52,895 nt of DNA from Escherichia phage LF82-10. A program made the translations under genes and the position numbers. The notes beneath the pieces were generated by a model. That model was not told where the DNA came from. It saw nothing but the letters and a program-made list of their open reading frames with translations, and did not search any database. Every line of letters starts with the position of its first letter. The stretch's first letter is position 1. The DNA lies in sequence record PV660453. One strand, 5' to 3'. Positions 30,097 through 49,110 of the stretch are shown in pieces.

Positions 30097-30810
30097 ATGA
30101 TTGACGAGAACGATAAAGACACAATGACGTTTGAAGAAATGGAGCACGGCTTGTATTCAACTCGCGCACTGGTTGCCGGGTGCCACTACCAGCCAGTGAA
30201 GCCGGAAACGTACTATCGCGTTTCAGGGCATCGTTACGTTGGCAGCAAAACGCCTGACGTTGTGCGTGACTTGTGGGCAACCGATCGCGAATTGATTTCG
30301 TGGATGGAAGAGCGTTACGGAAAGTATGATATCGACGCAGCGGCAAGCGCGAATAATGCCGTGTGCGAAAAGTTCTACGACGAGCAACGTAACTGCCTGA
30401 AAATCTGGTGGGGAAAGAATAAGCACATCTGGCTTAACCCTCCGTACTCACATCCTGATCCATTCGTGAAGAAGGCCATTGAGCAGATGGAGCATGACAA
30501 CCAGATTGATATGCTTCTTCCTGGCGACAACTCAACGGCATGGTTTGCAGAGGCGCGCAAAAACGCTGCTGAGATCATCTGGATTGAGGCTGAGATCACA
30601 GAGATTGACCAGCAGGAATATTGCCGAACCGGGCGACTCGCTTTTATTTCCGGCCTAACCGGAAAGCCAGTTGACGGCAACAACAAAGGGAGTGTGATTT
30701 TCATCATGCGCAAACTGAAAGAGGGTGAGACGCAACAAACACACTATGTGAGCGTTTCTGAGATCTGCCCAGGCGTAAGCCGCAAGAAACCACGTAAACG
30801 GAGCGTTTAA
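30097..30810 (+). CDS. dam: DNA N6-adenine methyltransferase (phage Dam-type)
   Basis: 237 aa; catalytic NPPY motif (WLNPPYSHP). Confidence 0.8.
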   Translation: MIDENDKDTMTFEEMEHGLYSTRALVAGCHYQPVKPETYYRVSGHRYVGSKTPDVVRDLWATDRELISWMEERYGKYDIDAAASANNAVCEKFYDEQRNCLKIWWGKNKHIWLNPPYSHPDPFVKKAIEQMEHDNQIDMLLPGDNSTAWFAEARKNAAEIIWIEAEITEIDQQEYCRTGRLAFISGLTGKPVDGNNKGSVIFIMRKLKEGETQQTHYVSVSEICPGVSRKKPRKRSV

Positions 30811-36833: not shown

Positions 36834-37250
36834 TTATAAATATTTTGCTTCAAATGTTGTGCCGTCTGCGATCGAAAATCCAACCTCCTCGCGGTAAAGG
36901 TTCCACGGTGAGCCGTCCTCGTCAAAGATAAGCCCGGCAACCCCACCAAGCGCCCTGCCTGAATCCACCTGGTAGCGCTTGCCAACCTTAAAGGATTTCT
37001 TCATTGGGTTCTTGTGATCCAGCGTCATGCACTTCAGGGTTTTAGTTTTCATCTCAACGAATGTTGCAGCAACGACGCCATCCGATGAAACGAAAATATC
37101 ACCGCTTACGCCAACCGAAAGCACGATCTTAGCCTTGCCCTTGCCGATTGAAATGTTGCCTTCATCGTCAACTTTCGCCTTATACATGTGGTTAGCGTTG
37201 AAGGTTTTAGTTAATGACATGGTGCATTTGATCTTGATTGACTTTGACAT
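36834..37250 (-). CDS. hypothetical protein (IKIKCT N-terminus, MKxKC-family)
   Basis: in-frame ATG at 37250 (MSKSIKIKCT...), SD AGGA; 138 aa. Confidence 0.45.
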   Translation of the reverse strand: MSKSIKIKCTMSLTKTFNANHMYKAKVDDEGNISIGKGKAKIVLSVGVSGDIFVSSDGVVAATFVEMKTKTLKCMTLDHKNPMKKSFKVGKRYQVDSGRALGGVAGLIFDEDGSPWNLYREEVGFSIADGTTFEAKYL

Positions 37251-37307
37251 TTTTAGTTCCTCGTTGTTGGTGTGAATGAATAATAACAAAACCCGCCGAA
37301 GCGGGTT

Positions 37308-37322
37308 TAACAAAAAGTGCTA
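37308..37322 (-). promoter_or_regulatory. TAGCA-box (TAGCACTTTTTGTTA)
   Basis: TAG is stop of 37320..38012; followed by hairpin CCCGCTTCGGCGGG and -10 TATTAT 37280-37285 (minus). Confidence 0.55.
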
Positions 37323-38012
37323 TTTGTAACGGTTGTACTGGAAGACGGCGCGAGCGAATCCGCGCGGAGTTAGGGAGCGGAGTTGCTTAGTCTTCGCAGA
37401 CTTTCCGCCGAGGAACTTCCAGCCCCAAAAGAAATGCAAGCCTTCCTCTTTTGGTAATGGTGCCTTCTCTGGCTCGCGGAAACCGTTGCCATGCCAGATG
37501 CAAGTTTTTTTCGTGTAGCCGTCTCGCAGTGGCATTTTGGGGTGCCAGGAGCCTTCACGCGCATCGACGTATTGCCCGAAGTCACGAGGATGGAAATAGA
37601 ATTTAGGCTTGCCCAGGTTTTCCGGCTTTGACATTGCCCCTACCGGGTTTTCAATCATCCACGGGATCTGGTAGCGTTCGCCAATCTCAATGACAACCTT
37701 TGCACACTCAAGCGCATATTTCATTTCGGCGTCGTCTCTCTCGTGCTGCGCGCCAGATTGGGCAAACAGAGTGCAATCCGGGAAGCCAAAAACGATATCA
37801 GGCTTGGGCAACCCCAGGATCTCAGCCTTTGTGATGAAATCCTTATCAATCCACGTATTCACATATCGGATATTTGGGTGATTCATCTTCACGGCGTACT
37901 CGCCATGATTGCCGGAGTCAGCGTTGAAGCATATCACCTGACAACCAACCTCAGCCCAAGGCAATCCCATAATGCCGGAGCCGTCAAACAGCGACCATAC
38001 AACACGCTTCAT
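37320..38012 (-). CDS. short C5-cytosine methyltransferase-like SAM-dependent protein
   Basis: 230 aa; motif I-like LFDGSGIMG, motif IV-like GFPDC (Pro-Cys region), motif VI-like ENPVG; no room for a normal target-recognition domain; stop TAG embedded in box 37308-37322. Confidence 0.5.
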   Translation of the reverse strand: MKRVVWSLFDGSGIMGLPWAEVGCQVICFNADSGNHGEYAVKMNHPNIRYVNTWIDKDFITKAEILGLPKPDIVFGFPDCTLFAQSGAQHERDDAEMKYALECAKVVIEIGERYQIPWMIENPVGAMSKPENLGKPKFYFHPRDFGQYVDAREGSWHPKMPLRDGYTKKTCIWHGNGFREPEKAPLPKEEGLHFFWGWKFLGGKSAKTKQLRSLTPRGFARAVFQYNRYK

Positions 38013-38230
38013 TCTGCCACCTCTTCAAATTTAGCCACGCCCAGGATTACCCATCCTTTATGGTGCATAGTAACCGCTTGCCACTCGAATGAGCCGTTGC
38101 GGCGCTTCTCATCGCCAGTGATCACAGCATCACCGCCAACCTTCACGGCATCGTAGATTTTACCTTTCGTGAAGTGTGGCTTTTGCTTCTTATCGGTTGG
38201 CGAAACAGCGCCAGTACATTTCAGTTTCAT
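38009..38230 (-). CDS. hypothetical small protein (MKLKCT, MKxKC-family)
   Basis: 73 aa; SD AAGGA; stop overlaps next start (ATGA). Confidence 0.45.
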   Translation of the reverse strand: MKLKCTGAVSPTDKKQKPHFTKGKIYDAVKVGGDAVITGDEKRRNGSFEWQAVTMHHKGWVILGVAKFEEVAE

Positions 38231-47870: not shown

Positions 47871-48502
47871 TGAACTTTCAAATGTACACTATGATCAAGC
47901 ATCACTTACTTACTCATCCAGATCAGCCAGTCTACATCTTCGACTATGACGGCACGCTTTCGGATGGCTCTCACCGACTGGACAAGTTGCCAACAAAAGA
48001 TTTGCACCTCACCGAAAGCTGGGAAGAGTTCAATCGCCTTGCTTCATTCGATGAGCCGATCGAAACAACCATTCAGGTGATGAATTCACTTTATAAGGCT
48101 GGCGCTTTCGTTATCGTGTTAACCGGGCGCGCCGATAGCGTTGTTGAAGAGTCAACACAATGGCTGCATGATGCTGGGGCGAAATATACAGTGATGGTGA
48201 TGCGTGGGCGTGACGACAATCGCAAGGACACGATCATCAAGGAGGAATTCTTGCGCTACATCGGACTTGAGCGAATTACAGCGGCGTGGGATGATAGCCC
48301 AAAAGTGATCGAGCATTTCCGATCGCTGGGCATCACAACCTACCAGGTTTGTGATTATGGCGATAAGACTCACGCGCATCTACAGTCACACGGCGTGAAA
48401 GATGCTGGCGGAGAGTGTGAGCATATTTGGGAGCGTCACAGTATTGGTGACGATTATTATGAATGCTGTGTTTCATGCGGCAGATCAAGAGGCATTAAGT
48501 AA
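47870..48502 (+). CDS. HAD-family phosphatase (T4 Pnk 3'-phosphatase-domain-like)
   Basis: 210 aa; HAD motif I FDYDGTL; later segments (VLTGRAD, RGRDDNRKDTIIKEEF, AWDDSPKVIEHFRSLGITTYQV) resemble the T4 polynucleotide kinase phosphatase domain from memory. Confidence 0.6.
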   Translation: MNFQMYTMIKHHLLTHPDQPVYIFDYDGTLSDGSHRLDKLPTKDLHLTESWEEFNRLASFDEPIETTIQVMNSLYKAGAFVIVLTGRADSVVEESTQWLHDAGAKYTVMVMRGRDDNRKDTIIKEEFLRYIGLERITAAWDDSPKVIEHFRSLGITTYQVCDYGDKTHAHLQSHGVKDAGGECEHIWERHSIGDDYYECCVSCGRSRGIK

Positions 48503-49110
48503 TGGCAACTATCATCATTCTGAATGCGCCGCCGCGCGCCGGGAAAGACACGATCGCGAAAATCATCGACGAGCAATACGGCTTGCCAGTTGTGAGCTTC
48601 AAAACTCCGATGTTCAACATTGCTCGCGGCATCTTGGGCGAAGCGGATTTTAAAGAGTTCATGGCGGTTTACGAAACAGACCGCAAGGACACACAGCCGT
48701 TAAGTATTCTGCATGGCAGCACTTGCCGCGAGTTTATGATCTGGATTAGCGAATCCGTGATTAAGCCTCATTTCGGCAAGAAGCATTTCGGCTGGCTTAT
48801 GGCTGATTTGCTCAGCGAAATGGAGGATGATGTTGATCTCACAATTTGCAGCGATGGCGGGTTCCCGGATGAGGTAGAGGCGTTGATTGACTTCGGGCAC
48901 CGTGTCAAGCTGGTTCGTATGCACCGTGAAGGCTTCGACTTCTCGAAAGATAGCCGTGACTACATCTACCTTTCCGAAGAGTACAAGAGCAAGCCTGGTG
49001 TTGTTGAGTTCGATCTGACATTGCAGGACGGTTGCCCTAATCTGGCTGCTGAGACTATCGCGTCATTGTTCATTGCCCATCATAAACCAGATAACGAGAT
49101 CCCTTGGTAA
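48502..49110 (+). CDS. P-loop kinase (T4 gp1 dNMP-kinase-like)
   Basis: 202 aa; Walker A LNAPPRAGKDT and later ICSDGGFPDEVEA resemble T4 dNMP kinase; start overlaps phosphatase stop (TAATG). Confidence 0.55.
   Translation: MATIIILNAPPRAGKDTIAKIIDEQYGLPVVSFKTPMFNIARGILGEADFKEFMAVYETDRKDTQPLSILHGSTCREFMIWISESVIKPHFGKKHFGWLMADLLSEMEDDVDLTICSDGGFPDEVEALIDFGHRVKLVRMHREGFDFSKDSRDYIYLSEEYKSKPGVVEFDLTLQDGCPNLAAETIASLFIAHHKPDNEIPW

Follow-up and report, generated by a model that had tools for sequence, protein, structure and literature searches.

A short Dcm-like protein of Escherichia phage LF82-10 as a likely DNA cytosine-C5 methyltransferase with Asp-Cys in place of Pro-Cys

Introduction

The gene examined here lies in a 52,895-nucleotide stretch of DNA from Escherichia phage LF82-10 (record PV660453; the whole stretch is referred to below as the window) and encodes a 230-residue protein, the LF82 protein, that resembles the Dcm protein of phage K42. 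The latter was described in a study of retron Ec86, also called Eco1 (bioRxiv 10.1101/2023.08.16.553469; later Wang et al. 2024, Cell Rep 43:114857), in which the 711-bp dcm gene was lost or disrupted in all four of the K42 escapers of the retron and was present in 34 of 35 Ec86-sensitive phages. Expression of K42 Dcm was toxic only with Ec86 in the cells, and liquid chromatography coupled to mass spectrometry (LC-MS), performed once nuclease P1 had digested the DNA portion of the retron's multicopy single-stranded DNA (msDNA), revealed high levels of 5-methylcytosine (5mC) with the wild-type enzyme and not with a C82A/E128A/K175A/K176A mutant, K175 and K176 having been picked as substrate-binding residues through superposition on DNMT3A (10.1101/2023.08.16.553469). 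The K42 genome is 95% identical to that of the BASEL phage KarlJaspers (Bas06) (10.1101/2023.08.16.553469), and later papers cite the connection between Ec86 and Dcm as established.

Two further phages associate homologous genes with resistance of virion DNA to EcoRII. The DNA of phage AAS23, whose gp52 is 43% identical to the LF82 protein and has the usual Pro-Cys dipeptide, was reported as Dcm-methylated from restriction digests, with EcoRII among the enzymes used. The DNA of phage KP36, which contains 155 CCWGG sites, was wholly uncut by EcoRII according to the 2013 description of that phage; the same description stated that KP36 is without a cytosine methyltransferase and credited the resistance to the Dcm of the host.

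Canonical C5-methyltransferases such as E. coli Dcm, M.HhaI and M.HaeIII (Pfam family PF00145) share with the LF82 protein the same fold, the order and spacings of motifs I, IV and VI and, for its motif VIII-like strand, the distance from motif VI, and the catalytic Cys and Glu. They differ from it in having a recognition domain of 80-150 residues, separate motifs IX and X, QxRxR where the phage protein has Lys-Lys, and Pro-Cys where it has Asp-Cys. The catalytic domains of DNMT3A and DNMT3B (6u8p, 6w89, 5yx2) have a very small recognition element, as does the LF82 protein; motif X of DNMT3A, G-R-S-W-S-V-P, also contains Arg-Ser, and F-W-G-N follows its motif VIII. These domains are, however, only 15-19% identical to the LF82 protein, and DNMT3A has both motifs IX and X as well as Pro-Cys. 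DNMT3A works as an oligomer with DNMT3L. A more distant comparison is offered by CmoX (8yf3), a phage cytosine C5-carboxymethyltransferase that may share with the LF82 protein a basic residue where motif X has its Asn, but which is of full length (a 372-residue chain), carries an SPPC motif and is accompanied by phage cmoA and ligase genes (PMC12783734).

Results and Discussion

A short protein from a large phage family

An open reading frame (ORF) of 230 codons plus stop, beginning with ATG, was confirmed at the coordinates given in a first-pass annotation of the sequence, which had left out the strand; the gene lies on the minus strand (Table 1). Its product is identical to XUQ13473.1 of Escherichia phage LF82-11, annotated 'DNA methyltransferase', and the region between 36000 and 40000 is 100% identical over 4 kb to LF82-11 (PV660454) and likewise to LF82-12, LF82-19 and LF82-40. 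LF82-11 is a T1-like siphovirus of 52,979 bp with its nearest relatives in the Drexlerviridae.

The closest relatives of the protein, annotated as putative C-5 cytosine methylases, come from Enterobacter phage Ec_L1 (81% identity) and Escherichia phage NBD2 (gp76, 74%), followed by Salmonella phage 9NA (gp78, 67%) and Webervirus KP36 (gp74, 62%); all four belong to the same subfamily and have the same length. A literature search for methylation in NBD2 found no paper. The KP36 homologue (NC_029099, 17553-18245, minus strand) has Ser-Cys at the catalytic position. Because gp74 went unrecognised as a cytosine methyltransferase, methylation of KP36 DNA was credited to the host; that conclusion probably needs to be revisited.

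Homology to the K42/KarlJaspers type of Dcm is also of full length. KarlJaspers bas06_0055, annotated 'Dcm-like C5 cytosine methyltransferase', is 43% identical over residues 2-227 (E=3e-61) and of nearly equal size (236 residues against 230), and both genes occupy the same slot beside a DUF3987-type helicase gene. Residues C82, E128, K175 and K176 of the K42/KarlJaspers protein align with C80, E121, K168 and K169 of the LF82 protein, all four of them invariant or almost so among the relatives, and the two proteins have the C-terminal block RSLTPRGFARAVF in common. They differ at motif IV, which reads FPPCTD in the K42/KarlJaspers Dcm and FPDCTL in the LF82 protein; in addition, the LF82 clade has a PE insertion after ENPVG, is without the five-residue insertion after motif IV found in the K42 type, and has FFWGW instead of NPGW. 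A role in DNA modification had been called unproven at first reading. For the family this is out of date, given the 5mC measured by LC-MS with a 43%-identical relative, and 5mC formation and Ec86 triggering, as shown for that homologue type, may by analogy extend to the LF82 protein.

The family as a whole is large. PHROG 757 ('DNA methyltransferase') matched residues 1-228 with E=3.6e-77, and a tblastn search of 50,697 phage records found a homologue in 1,489 (about 3%), with 1,471 of these aligning over at least 80% of the query, which we took as full length; among the carriers are Drexlerviridae, phages of 137-168 kb, Nonanavirus 9NA and Arthrobacter phages. In a collection of 5.8 billion proteins the family forms 1,971 clusters at 90% identity, with lengths of 215-245 residues among the matches listed, and an exhaustive HMMER scan returned 830 clusters at 50% identity whose full-length members mostly have about 200-260 residues. 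The LF82 protein is roughly 100 residues shorter than M.HhaI (327) and M.HaeIII (324-331), as the first-pass annotation had remarked, and 57 shorter than the shortest canonical phage C5-methyltransferase aligned here (287). The same annotation had called it truncated, which does not agree with the near-complete coverage in the phage records or with the sizes of its relatives: small size is native to this large phage family. The family, which runs to thousands of members, is known, widely annotated and in part characterised, and the LF82 protein is an unexceptional member of it. A truncated gene or pseudogene was considered and rejected in view of the family-wide short length.

Table 1. Features of the methyltransferase gene and related features of the window, numbered from the first nucleotide of the 52,895-nucleotide stretch.
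Feature	Position	Strand	Basis or remark
Coding sequence of the 230-residue short Dcm-like C5-cytosine methyltransferase	37320..38012 (stop included)	minus	ORF list, translation
Translation start region	38009..38023	minus	Shine-Dalgarno-like GAGGTGG at 38017-38023; ATG at 38010-38012
Motif I, F9-D-G-S-G13, S-adenosylmethionine (SAM)-binding loop after strand beta-1	37974..37988	minus	Aligns with FSGAG of M.HaeIII and FAGIGG of the canonical profile
Motif IV variant, F77-P-D79-C80-T81	37770..37784	minus	Aligns with GPPCQ of M.HaeIII; Asp79 in place of the canonical Pro
Motif VI, E121-N-P-V-G125	37638..37652	minus	Aligns with ENV of M.HaeIII and of the canonical profile; Glu contacts the target cytosine
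Motif VIII-like strand, Y166-T-K168-K169-T-C-I-W173	37494..37517	minus	In the place of QxRxR of canonical enzymes
Residues 176-211, sole space left for a target-recognition element	37380..37487	minus	Conserved G-N-G-F-x-x-P and F-W-G-W-K-x-L-G-G-K-S-x-K-T-K
C-terminal block R212-S-L-T-P-R-G-F-A-R-A-V-F-Q-Y-N227, resembling motif IX or X, with the final helix after it	37332..37379	minus	Conservation
Intrinsic-terminator-like hairpin AAACCCGC-TTCG-GCGGGTTT with T-rich tail	37289..37308	minus	Terminator scan, sequence; 12 nt past the stop codon
T1-type Dam gene	30097-30810	plus	PF05869, E=4.9e-59; unrelated second methyltransferase
Gene annotated as deoxynucleoside monophosphate (dNMP) kinase	about 48502-49110

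Catalytic motifs and the residue before the catalytic cysteine

Conservation was assessed over a close clade of 121 relatives at least 55% identical to the protein and over 107 distant representatives of the family; for canonical enzymes, eight phage and E. coli C5-methyltransferases served as the comparison set. The three motifs recognised at first reading were located as LFDGSG (residues 8-13), GFPDC (76-80) and ENPVG (121-125). Motif I conforms to the pattern FxGxG, and its residues F9, D10, G11, S12 and G13 are each invariant or nearly so across the close clade. Motif VI retains the catalytic Glu, and among the distant representatives E121 is present in 106, N122 in 101 and P123 in 105. 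In the motif VIII-like strand, Y166, K168, T170 and W173 are essentially invariant, and an AlphaFold2 model (see below) predicts a strand at residues 170-175. The spacing from motif IV to motif VI is 41 residues, compared with 38-47 in the canonical set, and that from motif VI to the K168/K169 strand is 47, compared with 43-52, the profile alignment itself stopping short of this strand. In the K42 study the strand is taken as the counterpart of motif VIII.

The alteration of Pro-Cys that had been pointed out in the first-pass annotation is real. Asp79 precedes the invariant Cys, and where the family typically has F-P-P-C-T-D the LF82 protein reads F-P-D-C-T-L. Cys80, the presumed catalytic nucleophile from its place in the alignment, is found in 121 of 121 close and 107 of 107 distant relatives. 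The residue before it varies: in the close clade it is Asp in 84, Ser in 23 and Pro in 11, and in the distant representatives Pro in 78, Val in 13, Glu in 11 and Asp in 3, where the motif IV strings are PPCT (68), PVCT (12), PECT (10) and PDCT (3). FPDC is common to NBD2 gp76 and 9NA gp78, and KP36 gp74 has FPSC. Inside the clade with Asp or Ser at this position, motif I, E121-N-P, K168 and R212 stay invariant, which speaks for selection acting on an enzyme and against decay.

Residues 79 and 82 (37767-37778, minus strand) appear coupled across 240 family members. Pro79 is found with Asp82 in 64 of 98 sequences and Asp79 with Leu, Met or Phe at position 82 in 69 of 85, a comparison confounded by clade structure. 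An acidic residue may thus have been relocated around the nucleophile, from position +2 to position -1 relative to the catalytic Cys. The Asp-Cys clade amounts to a natural experiment on the dispensability of the 'invariant' Pro of Pro-Cys.

Relationship to C5-methyltransferases in sequence and fold

The relationship to C5-cytosine methyltransferases proposed at first reading was borne out by comparisons that covered motifs I-VI: phmmer matched the protein to M.HaeIII with E=0.0038, and a profile-profile alignment with hhalign against the eight canonical enzymes gave E=1.7e-5 and a probability of 78%. Against the single sequence of Dcm the hhalign match was weak, and past motif VI the global hhalign alignment was uninformative. 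An NCBIfam search of the protein gave no match; Pfam and NCBIfam miss this family, and many GenBank records therefore name the gene 'hypothetical protein'.

Structure prediction, which the first-pass annotation had suggested as a check, produced an AlphaFold2 model with a mean predicted local distance difference test score of 89.3 and a predicted template modelling score of 0.88, with low confidence only at the catalytic loop, residues 83-91. In a Foldseek search with this model the best 30 matches were all C5-methyltransferases, 29 of them chains of DNMT3A or DNMT3B and the remaining one 3g7u, with a best E-value of 6.5e-8. The LF82 protein has the C5-methyltransferase fold in this model, and its link to these enzymes, weak by sequence, is clear by predicted structure. 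Membership of the short Dcm-like family, the fold and the conservation of the catalytic residues are observations of this analysis.

A near-absent recognition domain and a single C-terminal block

The earlier reading had found no room for a target-recognition domain, and its near absence is real: from K168 to R212 there are at most 44 residues, compared with 80-152 between motifs VIII and IX in the eight canonical enzymes, and the variable domain that those enzymes carry at this position is missing. Past the K168/K169 strand only 63 residues remain; DNMT3A has 123 from motif VIII to its end. The AlphaFold2 model predicts the region 176-211 with high confidence as mostly coil, with short helices at 196-200 and 206-212.

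Where canonical enzymes have motifs IX (RxLTxRE) and X (GNxV) as separate elements, the LF82 protein has a single C-terminal block without the GN dipeptide; R212, S213, T215, P216, G218 and A222 of this block are conserved throughout the family at large. The claim of the first-pass annotation that recognisable motifs IX and X are lacking was too strong, because this strongly conserved block, R212-N227, is present; what stands of that claim is that the block is not assigned to either motif with statistical security. In a Smith-Waterman comparison its best match on E. coli Dcm was motif IX, RRLTPRECAR, with 7 of 10 residues identical, a score equalled in 57 of 500 shuffles, and hhalign of the C-terminal halves paired it with motif IX at E=0.019 and a probability of 2.4%. 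The distance from the block to the C-terminus, 18 residues, fits the motif X Asn (14-36 residues) and not motif IX (49-71). When residues 200-230 were compared with the tail of DNMT3A, the best match was the recognition loop GRIAKFSKVRTITTR, a score that 5 of 1000 shuffles reached, and a BLASTP comparison of the last 57 residues with Dcm gave no match. The three short alignments of the block thus point three ways, to motif IX, to motif X and to a DNMT3-like recognition loop, and the assignment suggested by any of them is not secure.

Proposed function

We consider it likely that the product of the gene is an active, SAM-dependent enzyme of the short phage Dcm-like family (PHROG 757) that methylates cytosine in DNA at C5, and the 'minimal methyltransferase' offered as one option at first reading is the one that is supported. 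The protein would amount to little more than a C5-methyltransferase's catalytic Rossmann domain, with motif I (FDGSG) binding SAM, Cys80 attacking C6 of a flipped-out cytosine and Glu121 of ENP contacting the base. K168 and K169 may substitute for the arginines of motif VIII, and the segment of about 40 basic and aromatic residues at 176-211, together with the R212-S-x-T-P block, may replace the recognition domain of 80-150 residues. Made from the leftward cluster of small genes and helicase of a T1-like phage, alongside the phage's own Dam, such an enzyme would methylate replicating phage DNA and also host DNA. Most likely it would copy the host Dcm pattern (CCWGG) faster than the host Dcm can, and so protect against restriction of the EcoRII type; the cost would be that retron Ec86/Eco1 senses the enzyme through methylation of its msDNA. 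We infer that the Asp-Cys variant is active, that it is specific for CCWGG and that its role is anti-restriction.

Several points weigh against this proposal. By sequence, the Pfam match to PF00145 scored 18.3 bits, under the cut-off of 22, and covered residues 6-109 only; the same family was found with E<0.01 in just 6 of 98 relatives. A profile of the close relatives found nothing by sequence in the PDB, and a more diverse family profile found marginal matches only, to DNMT2 (E=0.0014) and HaeIII (E=0.095). The members that have been tested or are indirectly supported have Pro-Cys (K42/KarlJaspers, AAS23) or Ser-Cys (KP36), and none has Asp-Cys. As to the site, about 40 residues is very little for reading five base pairs, and the EcoRII resistance of AAS23 and KP36 is confounded by host Dcm. 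The CCWGG specificity of K42 Dcm was assumed from analogy with E. coli Dcm, its sole support being the mutation of the msDNA site (10.1101/2023.08.16.553469). In dcm+ MG1655, moreover, msDNA carried little methylation before the phage enzyme was expressed (10.1101/2023.08.16.553469); that enzyme therefore does not simply duplicate host Dcm.

Alternative explanations

The alternative with most in its favour concerns the site and not the chemistry: an active C5-methyltransferase might act elsewhere than at CCWGG, at a shorter or relaxed site or with a preference for single-stranded or hairpin DNA. This possibility, which we take seriously but hold to be on balance rather unlikely, would suit the 44 residues that separate motif VIII from the C-terminal block (80-152 in canonical enzymes), the 2-bp site that the closest solved folds, DNMT3A and DNMT3B, read with a minimal recognition loop, and the strong methylation of msDNA in dcm+ MG1655 only once the phage enzyme was expressed. 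Mutation of either C of the msDNA CCTGG sequence, on the other hand, abolished Ec86 defence (10.1101/2023.08.16.553469). Phages that carry a homologue have EcoRII-resistant DNA, and in the present window CCWGG is not depleted while other short palindromes are almost completely avoided. A relaxed C5-methyltransferase would create many R-5mC sites (R, purine), which are attacked by McrBC of E. coli K-12; BASEL phages with family members were isolated and grown on K-12 despite McrBC. A bolder idea, that the Asp-Cys subfamily (LF82-11, NBD2, 9NA and many Klebsiella and rV5-like phages) is no simple copy of host Dcm, strikes us as improbable. It would have these enzymes use either a new mode of DNA reading, for instance by oligomers, on DNA that is single-stranded or forms hairpins, or at a very short site, or a different cofactor chemistry, with Arg212 at the position that selects carboxy-SAM in CmoX; if true, they would be the smallest known sequence-reading C5 DNA-modifying enzymes.

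Transfer of another group, the other C5 modification among the options at first reading, for example carboxymethyl from carboxy-SAM supplied by CmoA of E. coli, with Arg212 acting like Arg350 of CmoX, deserves very little credence. Arg350 replaces Asn304 of M.HhaI, and a basic residue at this motif X Asn position selects carboxy-SAM both in CmoX and in the engineered M.MpeI N374K (PMC12783734). R212-S of the LF82 protein lies 18 residues from the C-terminus, where the G-N-S of motif X usually stands, an equivalence that is only presumptive, and the K42 study reported measurement of 5mC only. K42 Dcm raised 5mC itself, however, whereas wild-type CmoX accepted carboxy-SAM only (PMC12783734). Neither a cmoA nor a ligase gene is found among the annotations of record positions 27084-49084, the 22-kb region to which the search was confined. 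Motif X of DNMT3A also reads G-R-S, and DNMT3A is a methyltransferase that uses SAM. A dead or weakened SAM- or DNA-binding protein (a decoy, SAM sink or regulator), in which the change from Pro to Asp disables the catalytic loop, would account for the loss of the superfamily hallmark Pro-Cys and for the fact that the loop, residues 83-91, is the sole low-confidence part of the model. This explanation, raised as a SAM-binding decoy at first reading, is nevertheless highly unlikely because Cys80 and Glu121 are invariant; N122, P123, K168, R212 and motif I are near-invariant as well within the Asp/Ser clade, and the residue before the Cys varies freely (P, V, E, D, S or T) while the Cys never changes. 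The catalytic loop of C5-methyltransferases is, besides, normally disordered without DNA. That the substrate might be tRNA or another RNA, as for DNMT2, which has the same fold, is hardly credible: the K42-type homologue methylates msDNA, with 5mC measured in its DNA part, DNMT3 and bacterial DNA enzymes outscore DNMT2, and the gene lies among DNA replication and modification genes in a genome that also encodes Dam.

This family is one of the most widespread of phage DNA methyltransferases, has the smallest known C5-cytosine methyltransferase architecture and provides the molecular signal detected by retron Ec86/Eco1. If the LF82 protein is an active methyltransferase of the family, phages of the LF82-11 type should have 5mC in their DNA and might be susceptible to Ec86-type retrons, a prediction of modest practical value but relevant because the pathogenic E. 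coli strain LF82 was the isolation host of these phages.

Genome neighbourhood and site composition

The methyltransferase gene belongs to a cluster of small ORFs on the same strand upstream of a DUF3987-type helicase gene, and the same layout is found in LF82-11, KarlJaspers, AAS23 and KP36. Its ATG shares bases with the TGA stop of a 73-residue upstream ORF (38009..38230, minus strand) in the sequence ATGA, an overlap that suggests translational coupling. Neither this ORF nor the 138-residue downstream ORF at 36834-37250 (minus strand) has a Pfam match, and when similarity to methyltransferases was looked for in the two, none was seen. A split enzyme with a partner subunit was rejected, the neighbouring ORFs being without such similarity. 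The downstream ORF, T1p07-like and 138-159 residues long, is kept beside the methyltransferase-helicase pair in AAS23 and KP36.

The first-pass annotation had set the protein in the context of a Dam and a dNMP-kinase-like gene elsewhere in the genome, and both are there, the one by its PF05869 match and the other by its annotation (Table 1); a polynucleotide kinase gene is also annotated. The Dam gene sits in a rightward block that opens with a large annotated 'hypothetical protein', the counterpart of the KarlJaspers/KP36 helicase.

Palindromic restriction sites are extremely depleted across the whole window (1-52895). Twenty of the 64 six-base palindromes, among them GGATCC, CTGCAG, GTCGAC, CCCGGG and GGCGCC, have zero copies, with about 12.5 expected of each; GGNCC occurs once where about 200 copies are expected, RCCGGY not at all (39 expected), CTAG 27 times (205 expected) and GGCC 87 times (200 expected). 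GATC, with 349 copies (1.7 times expectation), and CCWGG, with 126 (1.25 times), escape this depletion, and the composition of the genome backs CCWGG as the target circumstantially. GATC and CCWGG are the sites that methylation of the Dam and Dcm types would cover.

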